DNA of 14,130 nt from a virus. The notes beneath the pieces were generated by a model. That model was given only the letters and a program-made list of their open reading frames with translations, was not told the DNA's origin and made no database searches. Below are positions 267 to 13,914 of this stretch, one piece after another. Each line of letters opens with the position of its first letter. Within the stretch, counting starts at the first letter, position 1. The stretch lies in UHGV virus genome UHGV-0306157. One strand, given 5' to 3'. The translations under genes and the position numbers were made by a program.

Positions 267-518
267 CTAACAGGATGCTCTGACTCGCAATTCATCCAGC
301 AGTTTATCATTTCCCATAATGTCACTTACCCTCATCGGTAAAAAAATTGCCTTTCGACCATTACGATACATCATTGATTTTGGGGTTTCAGAGAAGTAAT
401 CCATTTCGACTATAACTGACAGGTCATCACGACGTATGACTGCGTATTTGCTACTAAATAGTTTCTTTATTTTTTCCACGATGCCTCCAGGTTTATAAGT
501 ACAAACGGTTATATCCAC
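267..518 (-). CDS. hypothetical protein, 83 aa (weak call; possibly a fragment or frameshifted remnant together with ORF 98..325)
   Basis: Open frame from the six-frame track inside the AT-rich segment; GTG start with no Shine-Dalgarno; no recognisable motif; an out-of-frame ORF 98..325 overlaps it on the same strand. Confidence 0.25.
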   Translation of the reverse strand: MDITVCTYKPGGIVEKIKKLFSSKYAVIRRDDLSVIVEMDYFSETPKSMMYRNGRKAIFLPMRVSDIMGNDKLLDELRVRASC

Positions 519-754
519 ATAGAGACAAAAATATTAATCTGAAAAATATTTATTTCACGCCGTATATTTGATTGTTTAATGTGCAGGTACAATGACTTTT
601 ATTTTTTGTTGTGTATATAATCAAATATATGGTTATTTTTCACCCTGCGTATTCAGCGCGCAACAAAAAAACCGCCGAAACGGGTTAAGTGCGGGTGCGT
701 TGAGGATGCCTGACACATCAGAGGTGGCGAGGGATTTCTCCCTCGCCTGGTCTC

Positions 755-907
755 TTACTCCTCAGGTTCGTAAGCTGTGAAGACAGCGACCTCCGTCTGG
801 CCGGGTCGGATTCGTACCTCGCAGAGGTCTTTCCTCGTTACCAGTGCCGTCACTATGACGGTTAAACAGATGACGATCAGGGCGATTAACATCGTCTTTT
901 GCTGCAT
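755..907 (-). CDS. hokD: Hok/Gef-family type I toxin (small membrane peptide), HokD/RelF-like, 50 aa
   Basis: Hand translation of the minus strand gives MQQKTMLIALIVICLTVIVTALVTRKDLCEVRIRPGQTEVAVFTAYEPEE: one hydrophobic helix followed by the TRKDLCEV...GQTEVAVF..YE signature of Hok/Gef peptides, closest to my recollection of HokD(RelF). Absent from the ORF track because it is under 60 aa. In-frame GTG at 910 is an alternative start. Confidence 0.8.
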   Translation of the reverse strand: MQQKTMLIALIVICLTVIVTALVTRKDLCEVRIRPGQTEVAVFTAYEPEE

Positions 908-921
908 CACAGCCTACTTAC

Positions 922-957
922 CCTTACCTTTCGTTCAAGCGGTAAGGTCACTTTTTC
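922..957 (+). terminator. intrinsic-terminator-like hairpin; candidate 3' end of a Sok-like antisense RNA opposite the hok leader
   Basis: 7-bp inverted repeat CCTTACC (922-928) / GGTAAGG (941-947) with 12-nt loop, followed by TCACTTTTTCTGTT; lies antisense to the region just upstream of the hok start; preceded by tandem CTTACC CTTACC. Confidence 0.4.
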
Positions 958-1057
958 TGTTATGTGCTAACTAACAAACCTCTTTTATCTGCATTAAAAA
1001 TCGCTATCATGTGTCATCCTCAACCTGTTAATAGCCTATTATGGACTTTAGTAAACA

Positions 1058-2887
1058 ATGAGCACTTCCGCATACAAGAGCAAAATTCGAACACTCCAGT
1101 GCGCGTTAAAAAACGGTGAATTTGAACCATTCATACAACATATCCGTTTTCCATACTTTAAAAATATAGAGCAGAATGCAAGGATCGATTTTCAGTTCCC
1201 TATAACGGCTTTAGTAGGAAAAAATGGAACTAATAAAAGTTCTGTTATCAAAGCGCTATTTGGTTGCCCACATGGTAAAAATATAACTCGTTATTGGTTC
1301 ACAACTGAAACAGATGAGTTTCCTGACCTAAAACTTGCTGATGGCAGTTCTCTTAAACCTAGATATATATATGGATATAAAAATGCTGATGGCCGTTTAG
1401 TTGAAATACTCCAAGCGCGTATCAATGCTACCAAGAAAACAATCGATTATTGGGAAACAAGTCGACCATCTGTTGGTGATAACATGGAGAGTATTTCGGA
1501 TGATCTGGGTGCTAATAGTAATGCAACCAGATGGAAAAAAATCAAGAAGGGATTGGTTTTCCTAGATTTCAGATCGGAAATAAGTGCATTTGATAGATGT
1601 ATGTATCACTCTGATTTTAAATTAAGAAAGAAGAAGAGCGGTGTATTAATTACAAAGCAAGACTATATCAGAAGCAAATCTAAATATATAAAGAAAGCTT
1701 TTGATGAAAAGCTAAGTAATTTAAGACTTTGGGGGACGGAAACCATTGTTAAAAATATAATCTTGGCGCCAGAACTAGTTGAGCACGTCTCATTTATATT
1801 AGGGAAAAAATATAAAGTCATTAAATTTCTTGAGCATCGGTTATTTGGAACCAGAGGAGGAACCGCTTTACTTTCAACTGATAAGTTGAACTATACAGAA
1901 GCTTTTGCTGGAAGTGGTGAATTTGCAATAGTTTCACTAATACTCAATATTTATTCGGCCAAACCTAATTCATTAATTCTTCTTGACGAACCAGAAGTTT
2001 CACTTCACCCTGGTGCACAGAAAAGGATGATGGATGTTCTGTACTCTATTGTTGAGCAGAAAAAACATCAAGTGGTAATATCAACCCATTCTCCTGTTAT
2101 TGTGAACACTCTTCCCAAAGATGCCATTAAATTATTTGTTTTTGATGAAGAGAATGAAACAGCTAAAATAGTTCAAAATATAGCACCGGATGAAGCTTTT
2201 ATAGAGCTAGGGCATGATATTAACAAGAAAACAATAATTGTAGAAGATAAATTAGCTAAAGCAATTATAGATAAAGCGATTAAAAATGATGAAAGATTAA
2301 GCTTATCATTTAGTGTAAGTTATATACCAGGTGGTTCGGAGACCATTTTAAGCAAGCATCTTCCCAGTTACGCTGTGGTAGAACGCAATGATATTTTGTT
2401 TTTACTTGATGGTGATAAAAACAAAAAAATAAAACCAGTAAGAATTAGTGAAATTGCTGATGCTGATTTAGTTAATACAATGTGCAAATATTATGGTTGC
2501 GAGTTAATTATCAATGCCAGTGGTAGTAATGGCAAAAAAAATGAACAAGAATCTAATAGACTCAAAAGGCAAGTGCTTGAGTATGCATTCAATAAAGTGC
2601 AGTATTTACCATTTGATACTCCCGAACAATTACTCATTGAAAAGGCAATTACGCCAAGTGAAAAAGAAATAATTGATTCACAGACCTGGAGTTCTAATGA
2701 TCCAGAACTGTATAAGAATCAAATAAGATTATTAGCGCAACACCTGTATGATAAAGAAGAAGTAAATGCAGAGGAGATTTTTTGCATCCAAAAAATAATG
2801 ACCGCAAGACTTAAAAATGAATTGCCTGAATTTATAAAAATAAGAAAAATAATTACTCAGGCTCTTGACCGTGGTATCATTAGGTAG
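1058..2887 (+). CDS. ABC-type (SMC/RecF/OLD-like, AAA_21-like) ATPase with putative C-terminal TOPRIM-like nuclease domain, 609 aa
   Basis: Long ORF. P-loop VGKNGTNKSS (nt 1217-1240, deviant: N in place of the Gly before Lys); signature-like AGSGE; Walker B LILLDEPEVSLHP (Asp at 1985-1987); H-loop ISTHSP. C-terminal part has IIVEDK (Glu at 2243-2245) and LLDGDKN (DGD at 2408-2416) about 55 aa apart, compatible with TOPRIM Glu + DxD. Strongly AT-rich relative to flanking prophage genes. Confidence 0.8.
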   Translation: MSTSAYKSKIRTLQCALKNGEFEPFIQHIRFPYFKNIEQNARIDFQFPITALVGKNGTNKSSVIKALFGCPHGKNITRYWFTTETDEFPDLKLADGSSLKPRYIYGYKNADGRLVEILQARINATKKTIDYWETSRPSVGDNMESISDDLGANSNATRWKKIKKGLVFLDFRSEISAFDRCMYHSDFKLRKKKSGVLITKQDYIRSKSKYIKKAFDEKLSNLRLWGTETIVKNIILAPELVEHVSFILGKKYKVIKFLEHRLFGTRGGTALLSTDKLNYTEAFAGSGEFAIVSLILNIYSAKPNSLILLDEPEVSLHPGAQKRMMDVLYSIVEQKKHQVVISTHSPVIVNTLPKDAIKLFVFDEENETAKIVQNIAPDEAFIELGHDINKKTIIVEDKLAKAIIDKAIKNDERLSLSFSVSYIPGGSETILSKHLPSYAVVERNDILFLLDGDKNKKIKPVRISEIADADLVNTMCKYYGCELIINASGSNGKKNEQESNRLKRQVLEYAFNKVQYLPFDTPEQLLIEKAITPSEKEIIDSQTWSSNDPELYKNQIRLLAQHLYDKEEVNAEEIFCIQKIMTARLKNELPEFIKIRKIITQALDRGIIR

Positions 2888-2910
2888 TGATTCTGGATGC
2901 AGAGGGAAAA

Positions 2911-3951
2911 ATGAAAAAAATCAAAGTGTTTGACTTCTTTTCCGGTTGTGGTGGAACCAGCCAAGGTTTCCATCAAGCTGGAATGGATATTGTTTTTGGC
3001 CTCGATTTCGACGTTGATGCAGCCAGTTCATTTCGTGCAAATTTCCCGCAGGCTGCTTTTATTAACTCGGACATTAGGTTAATCGACAACAATGCCATAA
3101 ACAAGTTAGTAAAAAAACATCGTAATGATTACATTCTTTTTTCAGGATGTGCGCCTTGTCAACCGTACTCTAAGCAAAACTCAAATAAAAAAAATGATGA
3201 TCCACGATTAGATCTATTAAAGGAATTCAGTCGTTTTGTAGAGCATTATATGCCTGATTTTATTTTTGTTGAAAACGTGCCAGGAATGCAAAAGTTTAAC
3301 AAAAATGAAGGAACATTCATGATGTTTTTAGAAATGCTTTCATCAAAGGGATATAGTGTAGATTATAAAGTAATGCCAGCTGCGTGGTACGGTGTACCAC
3401 AGACGCGAGAAAGATTAGTGCTCATTGCATCCAAGGATTTTTATGTCGCATTGCCTTCTCCTACACATGGGGTTGGAAATACTCCCTATTCAACAGTAAA
3501 GGACTGGATCGCTAATTTACCGAAGATAGAAGCAGGAGAAAAGCATAATAGTATTCCTGATCATGAAGCTGCACGCTTATCAGAGCTTAATTTGCGTAGA
3601 ATAAAATGCACTCCTGAAGGTGGAAGTCGAGAATTTTGGCCAGATGAATTGATTTTAGAATGCCATCGTAACCATAAAGGGCATACAGACGTATATGGAC
3701 GTTTGAGTTGGGACAAACCAGCCAGCGGACTAACAACTCGTTGTATTAGCTATTCAAATGGACGTTTTGGACATCCAACACAAAATCGAGCAATATCGGT
3801 TCGTGAAGCAGCGTGTCTACAAACATTTCCTTTGGATTATAAATTTATTGGTTCTTTGCAATCTCGGGCTCGTCAAATAGGAAATGCGGTCCCTCCGAAG
3901 ATGTCTGAAACGATTGGAAAACATTTGCTTAATATAATCAAAGCCTCCTAG
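2911..3951 (+). CDS. DNA (cytosine-5)-methyltransferase, 346 aa, all catalytic motifs present
   Basis: Motif I FSGCGG, motif IV GCAPCQPYS (catalytic Cys), motif VI ENVPGM, motif VIII QTRERLVLI, motif IX ISVREAACLQTFP, motif X GNAVPP, with a variable region between VIII and IX. ATG at 2911 preceded by GAGGG (2902-2906); the track start at GTG 2887 overlaps the ATPase stop. 23-nt gap to the upstream ATPase gene implies an operon. Confidence 0.9.
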   Translation: MKKIKVFDFFSGCGGTSQGFHQAGMDIVFGLDFDVDAASSFRANFPQAAFINSDIRLIDNNAINKLVKKHRNDYILFSGCAPCQPYSKQNSNKKNDDPRLDLLKEFSRFVEHYMPDFIFVENVPGMQKFNKNEGTFMMFLEMLSSKGYSVDYKVMPAAWYGVPQTRERLVLIASKDFYVALPSPTHGVGNTPYSTVKDWIANLPKIEAGEKHNSIPDHEAARLSELNLRRIKCTPEGGSREFWPDELILECHRNHKGHTDVYGRLSWDKPASGLTTRCISYSNGRFGHPTQNRAISVREAACLQTFPLDYKFIGSLQSRARQIGNAVPPKMSETIGKHLLNIIKAS

Positions 3952-3966
3952 GAGGCTTTATTTTAT
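3941..3966 (+). terminator. intrinsic terminator at the end of the ATPase-MTase cassette (possibly bidirectional)
   Basis: Perfect palindrome AAGCCTCC-TA-GGAGGCTT (3941-3958), which contains the MTase TAG stop, followed by TATTTTATTGTTAT; the convergent minus-strand gene ends at 3984. Confidence 0.55.
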
Positions 3967-3983
3967 TGTTATCCCCCTAGTAG

Positions 3984-6821: not shown

Positions 6822-7244
6822 TCAATGCACTACGACAGAATCGCCGGGCGACCCACCACCGCTGAAATGTGCTTTCCGGTAAACGGCCTGGACTGCATCA
6901 TCATGCGCATCAATTGCCGTACTCAACGCTTCCTGCGCCGCCAGTAATGCACGGCGTTCCAAGGTATCGAAGATGCAGAGTCGGTGACGCAGCTCGCGCG
7001 GAAGAATTGCCAGAACCGCAGGGATCAGTTTCTGAATTTTTTCCCTTTGCGCTTTCGTTTCACCTTTCAACCAACGGTGATAGATATTCTGCTGATTGTT
7101 CCAGTCCTTGCCTGGTACAAGGGGCAATTCGCCGCCCCCCTGGCGCAGATATTCTTCAGTAATTGCGTTAGCGACCCACGCCTGCCCTTTTTCGGCTGCC
7201 AGGGCTAACAACACTGATTCGATGTGCTCATGCCTGATTTTCAT
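6822..7244 (-). CDS. ydaT: YdaT-family protein (Rac prophage; reported toxic partner of YdaS / CII-like regulator), 140 aa
   Basis: 140-aa ORF whose sequence (MKIRHEHIESVLLALAAEKGQAWVANAITEEYLRQGGGELPLV...) matches my recollection of K-12 YdaT; its start overlaps the ydaS stop by ATGA, implying translational coupling. Confidence 0.7.
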   Translation of the reverse strand: MKIRHEHIESVLLALAAEKGQAWVANAITEEYLRQGGGELPLVPGKDWNNQQNIYHRWLKGETKAQREKIQKLIPAVLAILPRELRHRLCIFDTLERRALLAAQEALSTAIDAHDDAVQAVYRKAHFSGGGSPGDSVVVH

Positions 7245-7483
7245 GAATCAACCGCTCCTATGCTGTTTTCGCTATGCTTACCGTCTGGGGGGAATACATC
7301 GTCAAGTCCACAATGAGCGCCAAGCCGATTAAGGGTAGAAACAATTTTTCTGCACTCCTCTAGTCCAGGGGTACGAAAATTTGCTTCGTAATTTGCCAGT
7401 CGGCTTTGTATCCACCCTAACTGAACAGCAAGTTGTCTTTGAGACAGCCCAAGCTGTTTTCGATATGTTGAAATTTTGTTCAT
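7241..7483 (-). CDS. ydaS: Cro-like HTH (XRE family) regulator, YdaS-like, 80 aa
   Basis: HTH motif LGLSQRQLAVQLGWIQSRLANYEAN; GGAGG RBS 6 nt upstream of the ATG at 7483; divergent from the repressor gene. Confidence 0.7.
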   Translation of the reverse strand: MNKISTYRKQLGLSQRQLAVQLGWIQSRLANYEANFRTPGLEECRKIVSTLNRLGAHCGLDDVFPPDGKHSENSIGAVDS

Positions 7484-7579
7484 TGAAAACCTCCGATGAC
7501 AATTTTAAACACATCTTGTGTTATATGGTCAAGCTGTTTTGTGTTTTATGTAAATCACGATTCGTGATACAAGGATGCA
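7484..7579. promoter_or_regulatory. divergent promoter/operator region between ydaS-like and racR-like genes (OR-like)
   Basis: 15-bp palindromes AACACAtctTGTGTT (7508-7522) and ATCACGattCGTGAT (7554-7568) plus half-site TGTGTT (7540-7545). Minus-strand promoter candidate: -35 TTGACC (complement of 7527-7532), 17-nt spacer, -10 TTTAAA (complement of 7504-7509); the first palindrome sits in the spacer/-10. Confidence 0.6.
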
Positions 7580-7999
7580 ATGGAAAAAGAAAACGAAAAA
7601 ATTGCCGCTAGTAGGCTCAATGACAAAATTGCAATGCGTCTTAAAGAGCGCAGGCAGAAGCTTGGTTTATCTCAAGGAAAACTTGCTGAAATCTGCGGAT
7701 GGACGCAATCGCGTATAGGTAACTATGAGGCGGGCAGCAGAAATGTTGGAGTGCATGACGCTGTCGTATTGGGAAAGGCACTTGGCATATCTCCTCCTGA
7801 GCTCCTCTTTGGAGAACAGGAATCTTCTGAATTGTGGTTAAATGAATCCCAACGAAAACTTCTTGAGTTGTTTAACCAGCTACCGGGCTCAGAACAACAA
7901 CGAATGATTGAGCTATTTGAAGTCCGGCTAAAAGAAATCGATGAGTATGTAGAAAAATATTTGAGAGGCAGGCTTAAAGATAATCCCCCACCGGAGTAA
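7580..7999 (+). CDS. racR: prophage repressor, HTH XRE family (RacR/cI-like), 139 aa
   Basis: HTH LGLSQGKLAEICGWTQSRIGNYEAGSRN near the N-terminus with a C-terminal extension; divergent from the Cro-like gene; AAGGA RBS; followed by a strong terminator. Confidence 0.6.
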   Translation: MEKENEKIAASRLNDKIAMRLKERRQKLGLSQGKLAEICGWTQSRIGNYEAGSRNVGVHDAVVLGKALGISPPELLFGEQESSELWLNESQRKLLELFNQLPGSEQQRMIELFEVRLKEIDEYVEKYLRGRLKDNPPPE

Positions 8000-8458: not shown

Positions 8459-8866
8459 ACCATTTATTGGATTAATTCAATATTCTTGCTGTAGGGGTAT
8501 AGCCGAGGCCACCAAAGCCCGGAGGTGGTGAAATAAAACCGGGCACAACACGAAGGCGCATTTCCGGTATCCATAAAGAGTCGGTCTTGTCTGTTAAATT
8601 TAAATGGTGGGAGTGCGCCTCCGGTTGTAAATAACGACATTGCTATGTGTAGTCTTTGGCGGCATCAGTTCTACTCCGTGGCTGCCCTGCCGCCCCTTTT
8701 TAAAGTGAATTTTGTGATGCGGTGAATGCGGCTAAGCGCACGCGGCACAGTTAAAAGCATCAGTGTTATGGGTGGATTATCCGGCGTTAATTGTTAACTG
8801 GTTAACGTCACCTGGAGGCACCAGGCACCGCATCGACAAAATTCATTTGTAAAAATGGAGATAATT

Positions 8867-9709: not shown

Positions 9710-12700
9710 ATGAGCACCGATAAACAAGTTTACCCACTGTATTACGAAGCAAAAAATGACAAAGTAAGAAAATGTCTCGGTATTAAAGGCGGTTTCTACT
9801 GGGCTGAAGCGAAAAAATTATCCATTGCCATATCCCGTGGTGCTGTTGCGATTGACGATGCTGGCTACGATGAAGATGACTTTAAAAAACCTGTTCGCGT
9901 CAATTTGCCCGTTGTTGATGACCTTCCACCAGAGGGCGTATTTGATACGGAATTCTGCAACCGTTACGAAAAAGGCGGAGAAGATGGCATCACAATGGTA
10001 TTTATCGCGCCCTCATCCTCTGCGCAGGACAAGCCAGCCAGCACTGACAATACCAATGTTAATGGCGAAGACATGACGGAGATTGAGGAGAATATGCTAC
10101 TCCCGATTTCCGGTCAGGAGCTGCCCATTTGCTGGCTTGCTCAACACGGCAGTGAAAAACCGGTAACGCACGTTTCACGCAACGAACTACAGGCATTACA
10201 CATTGCACGAGCTGAAGAACTACCAGCTGTTACTGCCCTGGCTGTTTCCCACAAAACCAGCCTGCTCGACCCGCTGGAAATTCGCGATCTCCACAAACTG
10301 GTGCGTGATACTGACAAAGTTTTCCCTAATCCTGGTAATTCAGACCTGGGACTGATGACTGCTTTTTTCGAAGCATACCTGGGCGCTGACTACACCGATC
10401 GCGGTCTGCTGACAAAAGAGTGGATGAAAGGAAATCGTGTTTCACGCATCACCCGCACGGCTTCCGGTGCTAATGCCGGTGGAGGGAACAAAACCGATCG
10501 CAATCCGAATTTAGTACACACCTTCGATACGCTGGATGTGGAGATTGCAGCGGCCACACTTCCGATGGATTTTAATATTTATGAAATTCCGGGCAGCGTT
10601 TATCGTCGCGCAAAAGAAGTCGTCCAGAAGAAAGAAAGTCCGTTCAAAGAATGGTCCGCAGCACTTCGCGCAATCCCGGGTATCCTGGATTATTCCCGCG
10701 CCGCTATTTTTGCACTTATCCGGAGCGCACACCCTGAGTTTTATCATTACCCGGGACGCCTTCAGGGGTATATCAACGCCTATTTAACGGAGACTGATCA
10801 CGAGAACCCTACCGAGGAAACTCTCGCTGCTGCACGACATACACCGGAAAAAGATATCCTGGAAGAAGTTAACCGCGAACTGGCTGCTGAATGCGAAACA
10901 GAAGAAGAAAAAAATAATGAGGAAAAATCACAACCGTCTGACGCAATGGCAGATGAACAGGCAACGACTGAAGCAATGGAGCCGGATACAACTGAACATC
11001 GCCAGGACACGCAATCGCTGGATACTCAGGCACAGATAGATCCGGTTAATCAGGTAAAAGTTACCGCTGACGAAGTAAACAAAATTATGCAGGCAGCCAA
11101 TATCAGTCAGCCTGACGCCGATAAGTTGCTTGCTGCCTCTCGCGGAGAATTTGTTGCAGGGATTAGCGACCCGAATGATCCGAAATGGGTGAAAGGGATT
11201 GAAACCCGCGATTCTGTGAACCAGAACCAGCAAGAAACGGAACAGAACGACCCAAATACGCAACAAAACGAGCCAGAAACGAAACAGCCTGAGCCAGTAG
11301 TGCAACAACAGGAAACGGAGAAAGTTTGCACCGCCTGCGGTAAGGCTGGCGGCGGCAACTGTCCTGACTGTGGCGCGGTGATGGGCGACGCAACGTATCA
11401 GAAAACCTTTAATGAAGAAAATCAGAATGAATATCAGGAAAAAGGTCTGGAGGAAATGGAAGGTGCTGAACATCCGCACAAGGAGAACGCTGGCAGCAAT
11501 CCGCATTGCGATTGCAGTGATGAAGCTGGTGAAACGACAGCACCTGTAGTAACTGAAATCATGTGGCCGTCATATTTCGAGCCTGGCCGCTATGAAAACC
11601 TCCCGAACGAGGTTTATCACTCCGCCAACGGAATAAGCAGCACAATGCTGAAGGATGCCCGCATCAGCCTGATGTATTACCACGGACGGCACATTGCCGG
11701 AACTATTCCGGGCGAGGAAAGTGATGCATTGCTGCGTGGGCGGATTATTCACAGCTATGTTCTGGAAACGGATAAATTCGCTGATGAGTATGCCATTCCG
11801 GTACCGGTTCCTGAATATGTGGTTACTACTTCTAACGAACTGATCGCCATCATTAAAAAACACAATGCCAGTCTGCCAGCACTGATGACACCAGAGCAGA
11901 TGAAAGAGTGGATCGAAAGCTACAACAGCACTCTTATACAGCCACTGTCGGTAAGTGCCGGGGCCGAAGAAACAGGCATCCTTTACGGTTCGCTTCTGGA
12001 GGAATTCCGGCGTATTCCTGAGGGGGAAAAACACACAGCATCAGCAATGAAAGCCTGTATTAAAGAATACAACGCAAGCCTCCCTCCTCTGCTGAAAACC
12101 AGTGGAACACGAGAGCAGCTCCTGGAGCAAATTGAAACTGTAGATCCAGAACTGGCAAAAAAAGAACGTGCTAAATCTTTGCCTTACAACATCAGTGGCA
12201 CAAAAGAGCAATTAACCGAAATCGCCCGGAAAATTCGCCCGGAACTGGTAACACTGGAGGACTGGCAAAAACGCCAGCAAGAAGAAAACGCCGGGAAAAC
12301 GTTTATCAGTCCGGATATGTATGAACAGGCAAAAAATATTCACGCAGCACTGCAAAACAATACTGATGCAGCAAGGCTACTCAACCACCCGGATCGCAAA
12401 TCTGAAATCAGCTATTTCGGGTTTGATGAAGAAACCGGGCTGGAAATCAGGGTCCGTCCTGATATCGAAATCCGGCTGCCATACGAAAGCATTTGCGCCG
12501 ACGTGAAGTCAGTCAGCCTCGGTTATGTGCGACAGGAACGACTGAAAGATCGCCTGCACCGTGAAATTATTGAACGTGATTATCACCTCAGCGCAGCAAT
12601 GTATTGCGATGTGGCAAACCTGGACAAATTTTTCTGGATCTTCGTCAACAAAGATGCTGGCTATCACTGGGTGGCCGTCGTGGAAGCCTCGCAGGAACTC

Positions 12701-12850
12701 CTGGAACTTGGTCGACAGGAATATCGCCGGACACTACGACAGATAAACGAAGCTCTGGAGACAAACAACTGGCCAGCACCGATTACCGAAAGTTATACCG
12801 ACGAATTAAACGACTTTGATCTTCGTCGTCTTGAAGCACTGAGCATCTGA
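9710..12850 (+). CDS. recE: RecE-like exodeoxyribonuclease VIII (long acidic linker, C-terminal PD-(D/E)XK-like nuclease region), 1046 aa
   Basis: Position upstream of recT-like and lar; N-terminal segments (NTNVNGEDMTEIEENMLLPISGQELP..., CTACGKAGGGNCPDCGAVMGD) match what I recall of RecE; C-terminal RPDIEI ... ICADVKSVS resembles a PD-(D/E)XK core; central low-complexity E/Q/N/T-rich region explains the many spurious minus-strand ORFs. Confidence 0.7.
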   Translation: MSTDKQVYPLYYEAKNDKVRKCLGIKGGFYWAEAKKLSIAISRGAVAIDDAGYDEDDFKKPVRVNLPVVDDLPPEGVFDTEFCNRYEKGGEDGITMVFIAPSSSAQDKPASTDNTNVNGEDMTEIEENMLLPISGQELPICWLAQHGSEKPVTHVSRNELQALHIARAEELPAVTALAVSHKTSLLDPLEIRDLHKLVRDTDKVFPNPGNSDLGLMTAFFEAYLGADYTDRGLLTKEWMKGNRVSRITRTASGANAGGGNKTDRNPNLVHTFDTLDVEIAAATLPMDFNIYEIPGSVYRRAKEVVQKKESPFKEWSAALRAIPGILDYSRAAIFALIRSAHPEFYHYPGRLQGYINAYLTETDHENPTEETLAAARHTPEKDILEEVNRELAAECETEEEKNNEEKSQPSDAMADEQATTEAMEPDTTEHRQDTQSLDTQAQIDPVNQVKVTADEVNKIMQAANISQPDADKLLAASRGEFVAGISDPNDPKWVKGIETRDSVNQNQQETEQNDPNTQQNEPETKQPEPVVQQQETEKVCTACGKAGGGNCPDCGAVMGDATYQKTFNEENQNEYQEKGLEEMEGAEHPHKENAGSNPHCDCSDEAGETTAPVVTEIMWPSYFEPGRYENLPNEVYHSANGISSTMLKDARISLMYYHGRHIAGTIPGEESDALLRGRIIHSYVLETDKFADEYAIPVPVPEYVVTTSNELIAIIKKHNASLPALMTPEQMKEWIESYNSTLIQPLSVSAGAEETGILYGSLLEEFRRIPEGEKHTASAMKACIKEYNASLPPLLKTSGTREQLLEQIETVDPELAKKERAKSLPYNISGTKEQLTEIARKIRPELVTLEDWQKRQQEENAGKTFISPDMYEQAKNIHAALQNNTDAARLLNHPDRKSEISYFGFDEETGLEIRVRPDIEIRLPYESICADVKSVSLGYVRQERLKDRLHREIIERDYHLSAAMYCDVANLDKFFWIFVNKDAGYHWVAVVEASQELLELGRQEYRRTLRQINEALETNNWPAPITESYTDELNDFDLRRLEALSI

Positions 12851-12861
12851 GGAAGGACACA

Positions 12862-13914
12862 ATGAACGAATTAACTCAACAAGAAAATATTAACTCTAAT
12901 GTTGCGGTTTTCAGCCCTCAGTCCCTGGCTGCAATTCAGACATTTTCCCAGGTAATGGCTTCCGGCATGGCTACTGTACCGGAACACCTCCGGGGAAATC
13001 CATCAGACTGCATGGCCATCACCATGCAGGCGATGCAGTGGCAAATGAACCCTTACGCAGTAGCTCAGAAAACTTTCGTTGTGAATGGTGTGCTCGGATA
13101 TGAAGCGCAACTGGTTAATGCCGTAATCAGTACTCGTGGGCCGCTAACCGGGCGTATTGAATATGACTGGTTCGGGCCGTGGGAAAAAATTATCGGGAAA
13201 TTTGAAATCAGGAAGAACGACAAGGGGAAAGAATATCGTGTACCTGGCTGGAAGCTGGCCGATGAAAACGGGATCGGAGTTCGCGTCCAGGCAACACTAC
13301 GCGGAGAGAGCAAGCCACGCGTACTGGAGTTACTTCTGGCGCAGGCCAGAACACGTAACTCAACGTTATGGGCCGATGATCCTCGCCAGCAGCTTGCCTA
13401 TCTGGCACTGAAACGCTGGGCGCGCCTTTATTGCCCTGAAGTGATTCTTGGAGTGTACACCCGGGACGAACTGGACGAACCACAGGAAAAAATCATTAAT
13501 CCGGTTCAGGAACATAAAAATACATCCGCCTGCCGTGCGGAACGTGAAACAACAATTATTGAGCAGGATGCCGGGGAAAACTGGATCAGTGCTTTCCGTG
13601 AACGTATTGAGCAGGCACAAAGCACCGGAGAAACAACATCACTTCGCCAGGAAGTGGAAGATCATAAAAATACACTTGGCGCTCTCTACACAGAACTTAA
13701 AGGAAAAGTGGTTCAGCGTCATCACCGTCTCAATGCTATTGCCCGTATTGAGACGATGATAAATGACCTGCCTTCATCAGGTGATCCAGAAGCAGAACAA
13801 AAATTTATTGCTCTGGAAAATACGCTGAATGCTGCACGACCACATCTGGGAGAATTATATGAGGCGTATAAAACGACACTGACAGATATGAAACCAGAAT
13901 ATATCGGCTCCTGA
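12862..13914 (+). CDS. recT: RecT/Red-beta family single-strand annealing protein, 350 aa
   Basis: Immediately downstream of recE (11-nt gap, AAGGA RBS); TVPEHLRGNPSDCMAITMQAMQWQMNP and VLGYEAQLVNAVISTRG align with the recalled RecT core (TVPALGNCDTMSFVSAIVQCSQLGLEP ... IIGYRGMIDLARRSG); longer and divergent compared with K-12 RecT. Confidence 0.65.
   Translation: MNELTQQENINSNVAVFSPQSLAAIQTFSQVMASGMATVPEHLRGNPSDCMAITMQAMQWQMNPYAVAQKTFVVNGVLGYEAQLVNAVISTRGPLTGRIEYDWFGPWEKIIGKFEIRKNDKGKEYRVPGWKLADENGIGVRVQATLRGESKPRVLELLLAQARTRNSTLWADDPRQQLAYLALKRWARLYCPEVILGVYTRDELDEPQEKIINPVQEHKNTSACRAERETTIIEQDAGENWISAFRERIEQAQSTGETTSLRQEVEDHKNTLGALYTELKGKVVQRHHRLNAIARIETMINDLPSSGDPEAEQKFIALENTLNAARPHLGELYEAYKTTLTDMKPEYIGS

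Follow-up and report, generated by a model that had tools for sequence, protein, structure and literature searches.

The stretch of DNA considered here (the window) comprises the 14,130 nucleotides of UHGV virus genome UHGV-0306157, and by its gene content it is a lambdoid prophage of the Rac type (Rac/Qin-type). It carries a full-length Rfam match to the DicF antisense RNA at 8644-8695 on the plus strand (60.9 bits, gathering score 48), together with the other Rac/Qin-type markers recE/recT (9710-13914) and a cro/cI-like pair (7241-7999). Synteny with the Rac-type prophage of E. coli O55:H7 DEC5E identifies recE, recT, kilR, ydaT, ydaV, and the DUF1627 and DUF977 genes. The DEC5E backbone is 96.4% identical over 77% of the window, making it the closest whole-window relative.

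The subject of this analysis is a small toxin gene of the hok family on the early-right strand, just ahead of the DUF1367/YbcO/Q-like genes. The DEC5E hok lies in the same place, flanked by the DUF977 gene on one side and the DUF1367/YbcO/Q-like genes on the other. In the window, the space between the DUF977 gene and hok is taken up by a two-gene AT-rich cassette that encodes an ATPase and a C5 cytosine methyltransferase (Table 1). The best PADLOC model for the ATPase is HEC-04 (4e-34), and the protein also resembles ATPase-Toprim, AriA, and PtuA. This slot is a hot-spot for cargo: the ATPase and methyltransferase occupy 952-3983 of the window, and a different pair, annotated 'beta family protein' and 'sce7726 family protein', occupies it in DEC5E (L010 908-3785). 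At the far end of the cassette, between the convergent methyltransferase and DUF977 genes, stands a perfect 8-9-bp palindromic hairpin, AAAGCCTCC-TAGG-GGAGGCTTT (3939-3960), which is terminator-like on both strands by scan and would impede the passage of early-right transcripts into the cassette and on to hok. The toxin gene stands out in base composition, as the first-pass annotation had noticed when it described a GC-normal island between AT-rich blocks: GC content is 54% at 701-900, against 33-34% at 401-700 and 31-38% at 1001-3500.

Of 5426 complete E. coli genomes, 32 have the junction of hok with the cassette and likewise 32 have the cassette itself; the junction also occurs in 12 viral contigs from IMG/VR. 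By comparison, a complete leader of the hokD/hokW type is found in 4300 of the complete E. coli genomes.

Table 1. Features of the hok region and the adjoining cassette (positions in the window).
Feature	Position	Strand	Basis or remark
hok mRNA intrinsic terminator, weakened	665-684	-	fold and alignment
fbi (fold-back inhibition) element, CCTCAACGCACCCGC	691-705	-	identical to DEC5E
9-bp stem-loop directly 3' of the hok stop codon	726-747	-	fold and conservation across alleles
hok (hokD/hokW-type) toxin ORF	755-910	-	stop TAA at 757-755
hok translation-initiation remnant	905-935	-	alignments; six substitutions relative to complete loci
7-bp hairpin CCTTACC/GGTAAGG, 12-nt loop	922-947	.	aligns with hairpin 5' of hok SD
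Breakpoint zone	936-951	.	alignments; megablast matches to cassette-free hokD loci stop at 933-936
ATPase-MTase cassette leader, in place of hok leader and sok gene	952-1057	+	co-occurs with ATPase gene
Two-gene AT-rich cassette	1058-3951	+	reads away from hok
ATPase AAA_15/AAA_21, 609 aa	1058-2887	+	PGAP 'ATP-dependent nuclease'
C5 cytosine methyltransferase, 354 aa	2887-3951	+	

The hok reading frame and its 3' region

The toxin reading frame specifies 51 amino acids from the GTG at 910 or 50 from the ATG at 907, and the encoded peptide is MMQQKTMLIALIVICLTVIVTALVTRKDLCEVRIRPGQTEVAVFTAYEPEE. It matches Pfam HOK_GEF (PF01848) with E=2.8e-23 (81.7 bits, cutoff 22) and is about 96% identical to HokD (RelF) of E. 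coli K-12; HokW of the Stx2 phages is also a close relative. Judged by these similarities, the gene is a genuine HokD-like membrane-toxin gene of the Hok/Gef family, in agreement with the 50-aa Hok/Gef-family toxin that had been read earlier at 755-907 on the minus strand. The same reading had called the gene unannotated, which was true of the ORF track at hand but not of PGAP, where the gene at the same junction is named hokD or 'Hok/Gef family protein' in all genomes among the matches listed. The exact allele of the window is a called gene in GCA_011078155.1, the sole record of that sequence. What sets this allele apart is a T36P change (codon 36, 805-803 on the minus strand), giving RIRPGQ in place of RIRTGQ; Thr36 is present in all other cassette-linked alleles, in K-12 HokD, and in HokW.

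The reading frame is intact in all nine distinct cassette-linked hok alleles, none of which is annotated as a pseudogene, and the peptide could perhaps still be in use. Intactness is nonetheless little informative here, because the lineage is young (its cassettes are 98.4-99.1% identical) and the coding sequence is a mosaic produced by recombination with intact loci.

The K-12 hokD mRNA is reported to undergo A-to-I editing at Tyr47 (Tyr>Cys) at a level of about 6% (PMC12214031). The counterpart of the edited site, a Tyr47 codon UAC followed by G, is conserved in the window (772-770, minus strand).

Downstream of the stop codon, the elements expected of a hok mRNA are still in place. The 9-bp hairpin GGCGAGGGA-TTTC-TCCCTCGCC (726-747), to which the first-pass annotation had drawn attention as a strong structure just past the hok stop, folds with -19.7 kcal/mol (z=-5.1), a value reached by none of 200 shuffled sequences, and it is conserved: its fifth pair is A-U in the window, G.U in DEC5E and K-12, and G-C in Rac442, a compensatory series. 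The stem-loop that ends the processed (Tr) hok mRNA, and guards that RNA against 3' exonucleases (PMC9841398), is homologous to this hairpin. The fbi element follows. In the predicted fold of the full-length DEC5E RNA (z=-8.7), fbi pairs with the 5' tac element GCGGGUGCUUGAGG to give the textbook tac-fbi helix, a helix unavailable to RNA from the window, where fbi is kept and no tac partner exists.

The hok terminator has been weakened by two substitutions, CCCGTTTCGGCGG+U7 in the window against CCCGCTTCGGCGGG+U6 in its relatives, so that a 4-bp stem, CCGU/GCGG, which includes a G.U pair, followed by U7 stands where relatives have the 6-bp stem ACCCGC/GCGGGU. Transcripts may read through it into the downstream ORF. 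That ORF (267-518, minus strand) was considered as a candidate for Rem, encoded downstream of hokD in K-12, and rejected, as the two have no similarity.

A permissive Rfam search of 500-1200 gave only chance-level matches below threshold, the best of them at 21 bits, between the hok 3' UTR (665-746, minus strand) and the model of the Hfq-binding sRNA IsrK, whose gathering score is 50. A similar match below threshold is seen in K-12 hokD (L005 2030-2111, minus strand), and the scores for the two loci are 21-25 bits. I rejected an isrK identity for the hok 3' UTR: the match is the chance-level best of that search, K-12 hokD behaves the same, and the resemblance probably amounts to the common shape of a hairpin, a spacer, and a terminator.

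The missing leader and the altered start region

The state of the region upstream of hok is a different matter. In complete loci, the Rfam sok model, RF01794 (157 positions), spans the 150-175 nt that immediately precede the hok start. Six such loci score from 104 to 122 bits: DEC5E (122), K-12 hokC (118), 933W hokW (114), Rac442 (111), K-12 hokB (110), and PPompW (104). In contrast, no match was found at E<=10 in window positions 500-1200, nor did K-12 hokD give one at E<=0.1, or the loci with the cassette in RM8385 and ATCC 8739 (L001, L002) one that reached the gathering score.

Alignments show where the leader was lost. The window is 98.7% identical to DEC5E from 895 down to 520, both pairwise and in multiple alignment A2, and in both alignments homology to complete hok/sok loci ends upstream of about 936-951. 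Lost along with the homologous leader are therefore the promoter of hok, tac, ucb, the start of mok, the target of Sok, and sok itself. The absent segment corresponds to the 5' leader of about 130-175 nt in complete loci, and in its place lies the leader of the cassette, which is found together with the ATPase gene in every case (32 of 32 genomes, 12 of 12 viral contigs).

Searches for the individual elements agree. The tac sequence of this subfamily, GCGGGTGCTTGAGG, is not matched in the window even when 3 mismatches are allowed, and it is absent from A2 as well. No minus-strand ORF of at least 20 aa overlaps the hok start, the region of the mok ATG is missing, and the frame equivalent to mok is closed, two codons ahead of the hok start, by an in-frame TAG (CAG>TAG at 916). 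Comparison with known loci, recommended earlier as a means to place mok, tac, and fbi, thus located fbi but neither of the others. The failure to find a canonical mok frame, recorded in the first-pass annotation along with the thought that the locus might be partly decayed, was borne out: tac, mok, the Sok target, and sok are all absent. Its principal claim, a hok/sok-like type I toxin-antitoxin locus, does not hold up: nothing matches the sok model, the leader is absent, and alignment with DEC5E shows the regulatory region to be truncated by the neighboring insertion. No type I toxin-antitoxin or addiction function is to be expected of this locus, because neither the antitoxin nor its target is present.

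A replacement promoter is not apparent. The segment homologous to the hok promoter region, about 170 nt upstream of the start in complete loci, has been deleted, and scans of 660-1060 on both strands for promoters and terminators gave nothing above shuffle expectation. No site within 660-1060 on either strand reaches 9/12 of the sigma-70 consensus, and the best minus-strand candidates (8/12) are equaled in 289 of 300 shuffles, although consensus scans of this kind cannot rule out promoters. The best sigma-70-like match in the neighborhood, ATGACT-18-TATAAT (10/12), lies at 592-621 on the plus strand, within the AT-rich spacer that hok has on its downstream side, and is directed antisense across hok; it is probably a by-product of AT-richness, since the number of such matches equals that expected from shuffles.

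The short stretch that remains upstream of the reading frame is itself altered. Six substitutions at 905-928 have converted AAGGAG to AAGGGT, CAG to TAG, ATG to GTG, AAG to ATG, and C to T (at 926), and the AAGGGT, TAG, GTG, and ATG changes set the window apart from all complete loci and from K-12 hokD. Exact matches to the variant 27-mer, to the GTGATG start, and to the variant hairpin were confined to the same 12 IMG/VR contigs, all 12 with the cassette leader, and an exact-pattern scan for the variant start region in a collection of one genome per species gave no match. I considered that the leader of the window might come from another hok subfamily and rejected the idea: the exact scans turned up only cassette-linked contigs and no intact ancestor.

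In hok of plasmid R1, mutations of the mok start codon or early stop mutations in mok abolish the synthesis of Hok, and so do single substitutions by the hok SD, including A163G (PMC9841398). The equivalent of A163G is present in the start region of the window. Poor translation of hok, with very low output of Hok, is predicted on the grounds that mok is absent and that a change equivalent to A163G causes loss of function in R1. Some translation may be possible, since an AGG lies 5 nt upstream of the ATG at 907 and an upstream ORF of 14 codons (951-907, minus strand; GTG start, no Shine-Dalgarno sequence) terminates at that AUG, its UGA overlapping the start codon (GUGAUG). Such a layout is typical of termination-reinitiation coupling, though it may be due to chance.

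The locus is probably, then, a truncated remnant of the hokD type, devoid of antitoxin, whose leader was replaced by the cassette and which is essentially silent. On this account, the 3' two-thirds of a hok/sok locus of the hokD/hokW type would have remained in a Rac-type lambdoid prophage after an AT-rich cassette of ATPase and C5-methyltransferase genes, acquired horizontally, had replaced the 5' leader with its own left end, sparing the intact Hok ORF, the stem-loop, fbi, and the weakened terminator. As canonical synthesis of Hok requires translation of mok up to the hok start, and as mok is missing here and both the SD and the start codon are mutated, little toxin would be expected even from a transcribed gene; the hok RNA itself would have to arise by read-through on the minus strand. 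Most likely the gene is transcriptionally dependent on its surroundings, poorly translated, and essentially silent, like hokD (relF) of K-12.

Alternative readings of the locus

Rather unlikely, though the likeliest of the alternatives, is the possibility that hok functions as an orphan toxin. Hok would be made during prophage induction and would aid lysis and phage release, as HokW does in Sp5, its mRNA provided by long minus-strand transcripts through the cassette that begin in the early-right operon or at promoters within the cassette (comparable to K-12 hokD with relBE). The arrangement of genes is in keeping with this: hok is co-stranded with the early-right genes (cro-like, ydaT, ydaV, DUF1627, DUF977) and with the DUF1367/YbcO/Q-like genes, and because it lies between the early-right and Q-like genes on one strand, transcripts bound for the Q-like gene must cross it. 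The ORF has stayed intact in all cassette-linked alleles, the mRNA of K-12 hokD is detectable, 6% edited, and induced by Sxy, and HokW is produced after induction, with deletion of hokW halving the yield of phage (PMC8621323). Against it, minus-strand transcripts would meet the terminator-like 9-bp hairpin at 3939-3960 before they came to the cassette, the SD has lost its core, GTG has replaced the canonical ATG, and there is no mok to open the start region. Moreover, HokW in Sp5 is controlled through the loss of sokW RNA, and the window has nothing equivalent to that RNA.

Much less probable is an antisense antitoxin unrelated to Sok, a plus-strand RNA running from within the hok coding sequence to 922-957 and blocking the hok start codon. 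The hairpin and T5 on which this reading depends do exist: the stem (922-928/941-947) is followed by UCAC and then by U5 (T5 at 952-956, plus strand). The first-pass annotation had taken them for a plus-strand hairpin with a T-tract at the position of a Sok terminator. The stem and the T5 were seen rightly, but the fold is weak (-8.8 kcal/mol, z=-1.5; 15 of 200 shuffles equal it) and the terminator scan did not call the hairpin with its T-run. The position is not that of a terminator, either. In complete loci, sok RNA, which is about 60-70 nt long and complementary to the region where mok initiates, is transcribed away from hok from a point some 50 nt upstream of the hok ATG (in K-12, sokC occupies 16952-17010 and hokC starts at 16903), and its terminator, by alignment, lies about 100 nt upstream; sokW of 933W has the same layout. 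The sok promoter overlaps a small hairpin that directly precedes the hok SD, and it is there that 922-947 aligns. In hokW, the hexamers of the sok promoter are TTGCCT-17-TAACCT, their position inferred from the promoter-less mutagenic primers of PMC8621323. The corresponding hexamers of the window, TTACCT and GTCACT, match only 5/12 of the sigma-70 consensus, and the second position of the -10 element is without its key A. The alignment thus makes 922-957 a relic of the -35 region of the sok promoter and of the hok SD region, wrongly placed earlier as a Sok terminator, and the T-run at 952-956 belongs to the junction with cassette DNA. Any transcripts that started at the relic would enter the ATPase gene and not cross hok.

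A promoter for the supposed antisense RNA is no easier to find. The best candidate, TAAACA-18-TAACAT with its -10 element ending at 892, would yield an RNA of about 58 nt (about 899-957) over the start region, but it matches 8/12, a score equaled in 171 of 300 shuffles, it lies within conserved coding sequence common to complete hok/sok loci, and the stricter scan of 660-1060 was empty on both strands. The terminator would need to work with a 12-nt loop, a 4-nt spacer, and only five U, and descent from the region of the hok SD and sok -35 accounts for the hairpin. The earlier suggestion of a Sok-like RNA ending near 957 fails on the same grounds: the hairpin is weak, RF01794 is silent, and the promoter is at shuffle level.

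I give very little credence to a related idea, that the cassette-linked hok, after losing sok and mok, came under a new control independent of Sok, a rewired translational switch. Its parts could be AAGGGT, the GTG-ATG, the perfect 7-bp hairpin over the old SD, the 14-codon upstream ORF, and a plus-strand RNA to 957. If this were true, a Hok free of its antitoxin would remain of use, for instance in helping lysis or as an abortive-infection effector beside the cassette.

The least credible reading ties hok to the cassette, as an addiction module for it (the role proposed in the first-pass annotation) or as the membrane effector of a defence-like system: the junction co-occurs with the cassette in all 32 E. 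coli genomes and all 12 viral contigs, and the ATPase resembles the defence ATPases named above, but these co-occurrences count as a single event because all belong to one lineage, hok and the cassette genes are divergent rather than co-oriented, hok was at this site before the cassette (in DEC5E, hok/sok is complete and the slot holds other cargo), and a toxin without antitoxin would not bring about post-segregational killing. Furthermore, three divergent homologues of the cassette, from Pantoea (L023) and from viral contigs (L032 and L033), with ATPases 63-69% and methyltransferases 72-73% identical, keep the ATPase-methyltransferase pair with no Hok in the flanks examined (4 kb to either side, but 573 bp upstream in L033). 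Noncoding DNA upstream of the ATPase gene does not align among the three homologues, so that the left border of the cassette is not defined by them. The conservation of the pair in these three suggests an autonomous two-gene module, defence-like or R-M-like. Since the divergent cassettes lack hok and the hok/sok of DEC5E is complete, the adjacency of hok and cassette is best explained by a single event of insertion or replacement, with no functional pairing.

Relation to known hok systems

The reading preferred here, a truncated and essentially silent hokD-type remnant, has a close precedent in hokD (relF) of the K-12 Qin prophage. Both genes encode 51-aa toxins, about 96% identical, and reside in lambdoid prophages, and both have the same 3' UTR (stem-loop, fbi, and terminator) without sok, mok, or tac. 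They differ in their breakpoints: K-12 hokD has relBE upstream on the same strand and is co-transcribed with it, whereas hok of the window has a divergent ATPase-MTase cassette. They differ also in their start regions, K-12 having kept a canonical AGGAG SD and ATG and the window having AAGGGT and GTG-ATG. The hok loci of K-12 have been described as inactivated by IS elements, point mutation, or rearrangement, according to PMC7232551 and PMC12214031, citing Pedersen & Gerdes (1999), and hokD itself is regarded in the literature as inactivated by rearrangement, yet its mRNA is detectable. The window has what defines a Sok-less relic of the hokD type: a HokD-like peptide, a 3' UTR that has been kept, and loss of sok, mok, and tac by a 5' rearrangement. 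As a toxin gene of the hokD type it is already known and annotated as a matter of routine, and its kind of truncation is known as well.

The other comparisons bring out what has been lost. The prophage-borne hokW-sokW of the Stx2 phages Sp5 and 933W belongs to the same Hok subfamily and has a nearly identical coding region and 3' UTR; primer YO-350, used with hokW-sokW (PMC8621323), matches 699-723 of the window exactly. That locus, experimentally a toxin-antitoxin system of type I that assists lysis, has a full leader with tac and mokW and a 71-nt sokW with its own promoter, all of which the window is without. The DEC5E locus similarly retains a 175-nt leader and sok, its different insert lying further upstream. 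More distantly, hok/sok of plasmid R1 (parB) shares the Hok/Gef fold family (two related cassette-linked alleles align with R1 Hok at E about 3e-9), the 3' stem-loop after the stop codon, and the same fbi logic, but R1 has a promoter, tac, ucb, mok, Sok, and post-segregational killing, and the window has none of these regulatory parts.

Beyond annotation hygiene, the importance of the locus is slight. It does offer a natural example of a prophage hot-spot at which the landing of a defence-like moron cassette has cost a hok/sok locus its antitoxin half. At least 32 complete E. coli genomes still carry the toxin ORF, in keeping with the view that Hok cannot be synthesized in the absence of mok and tac. 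The natural alleles, the complete one of DEC5E and the truncated one of the window, would form a useful series for studying the mok-dependent translation of Hok.
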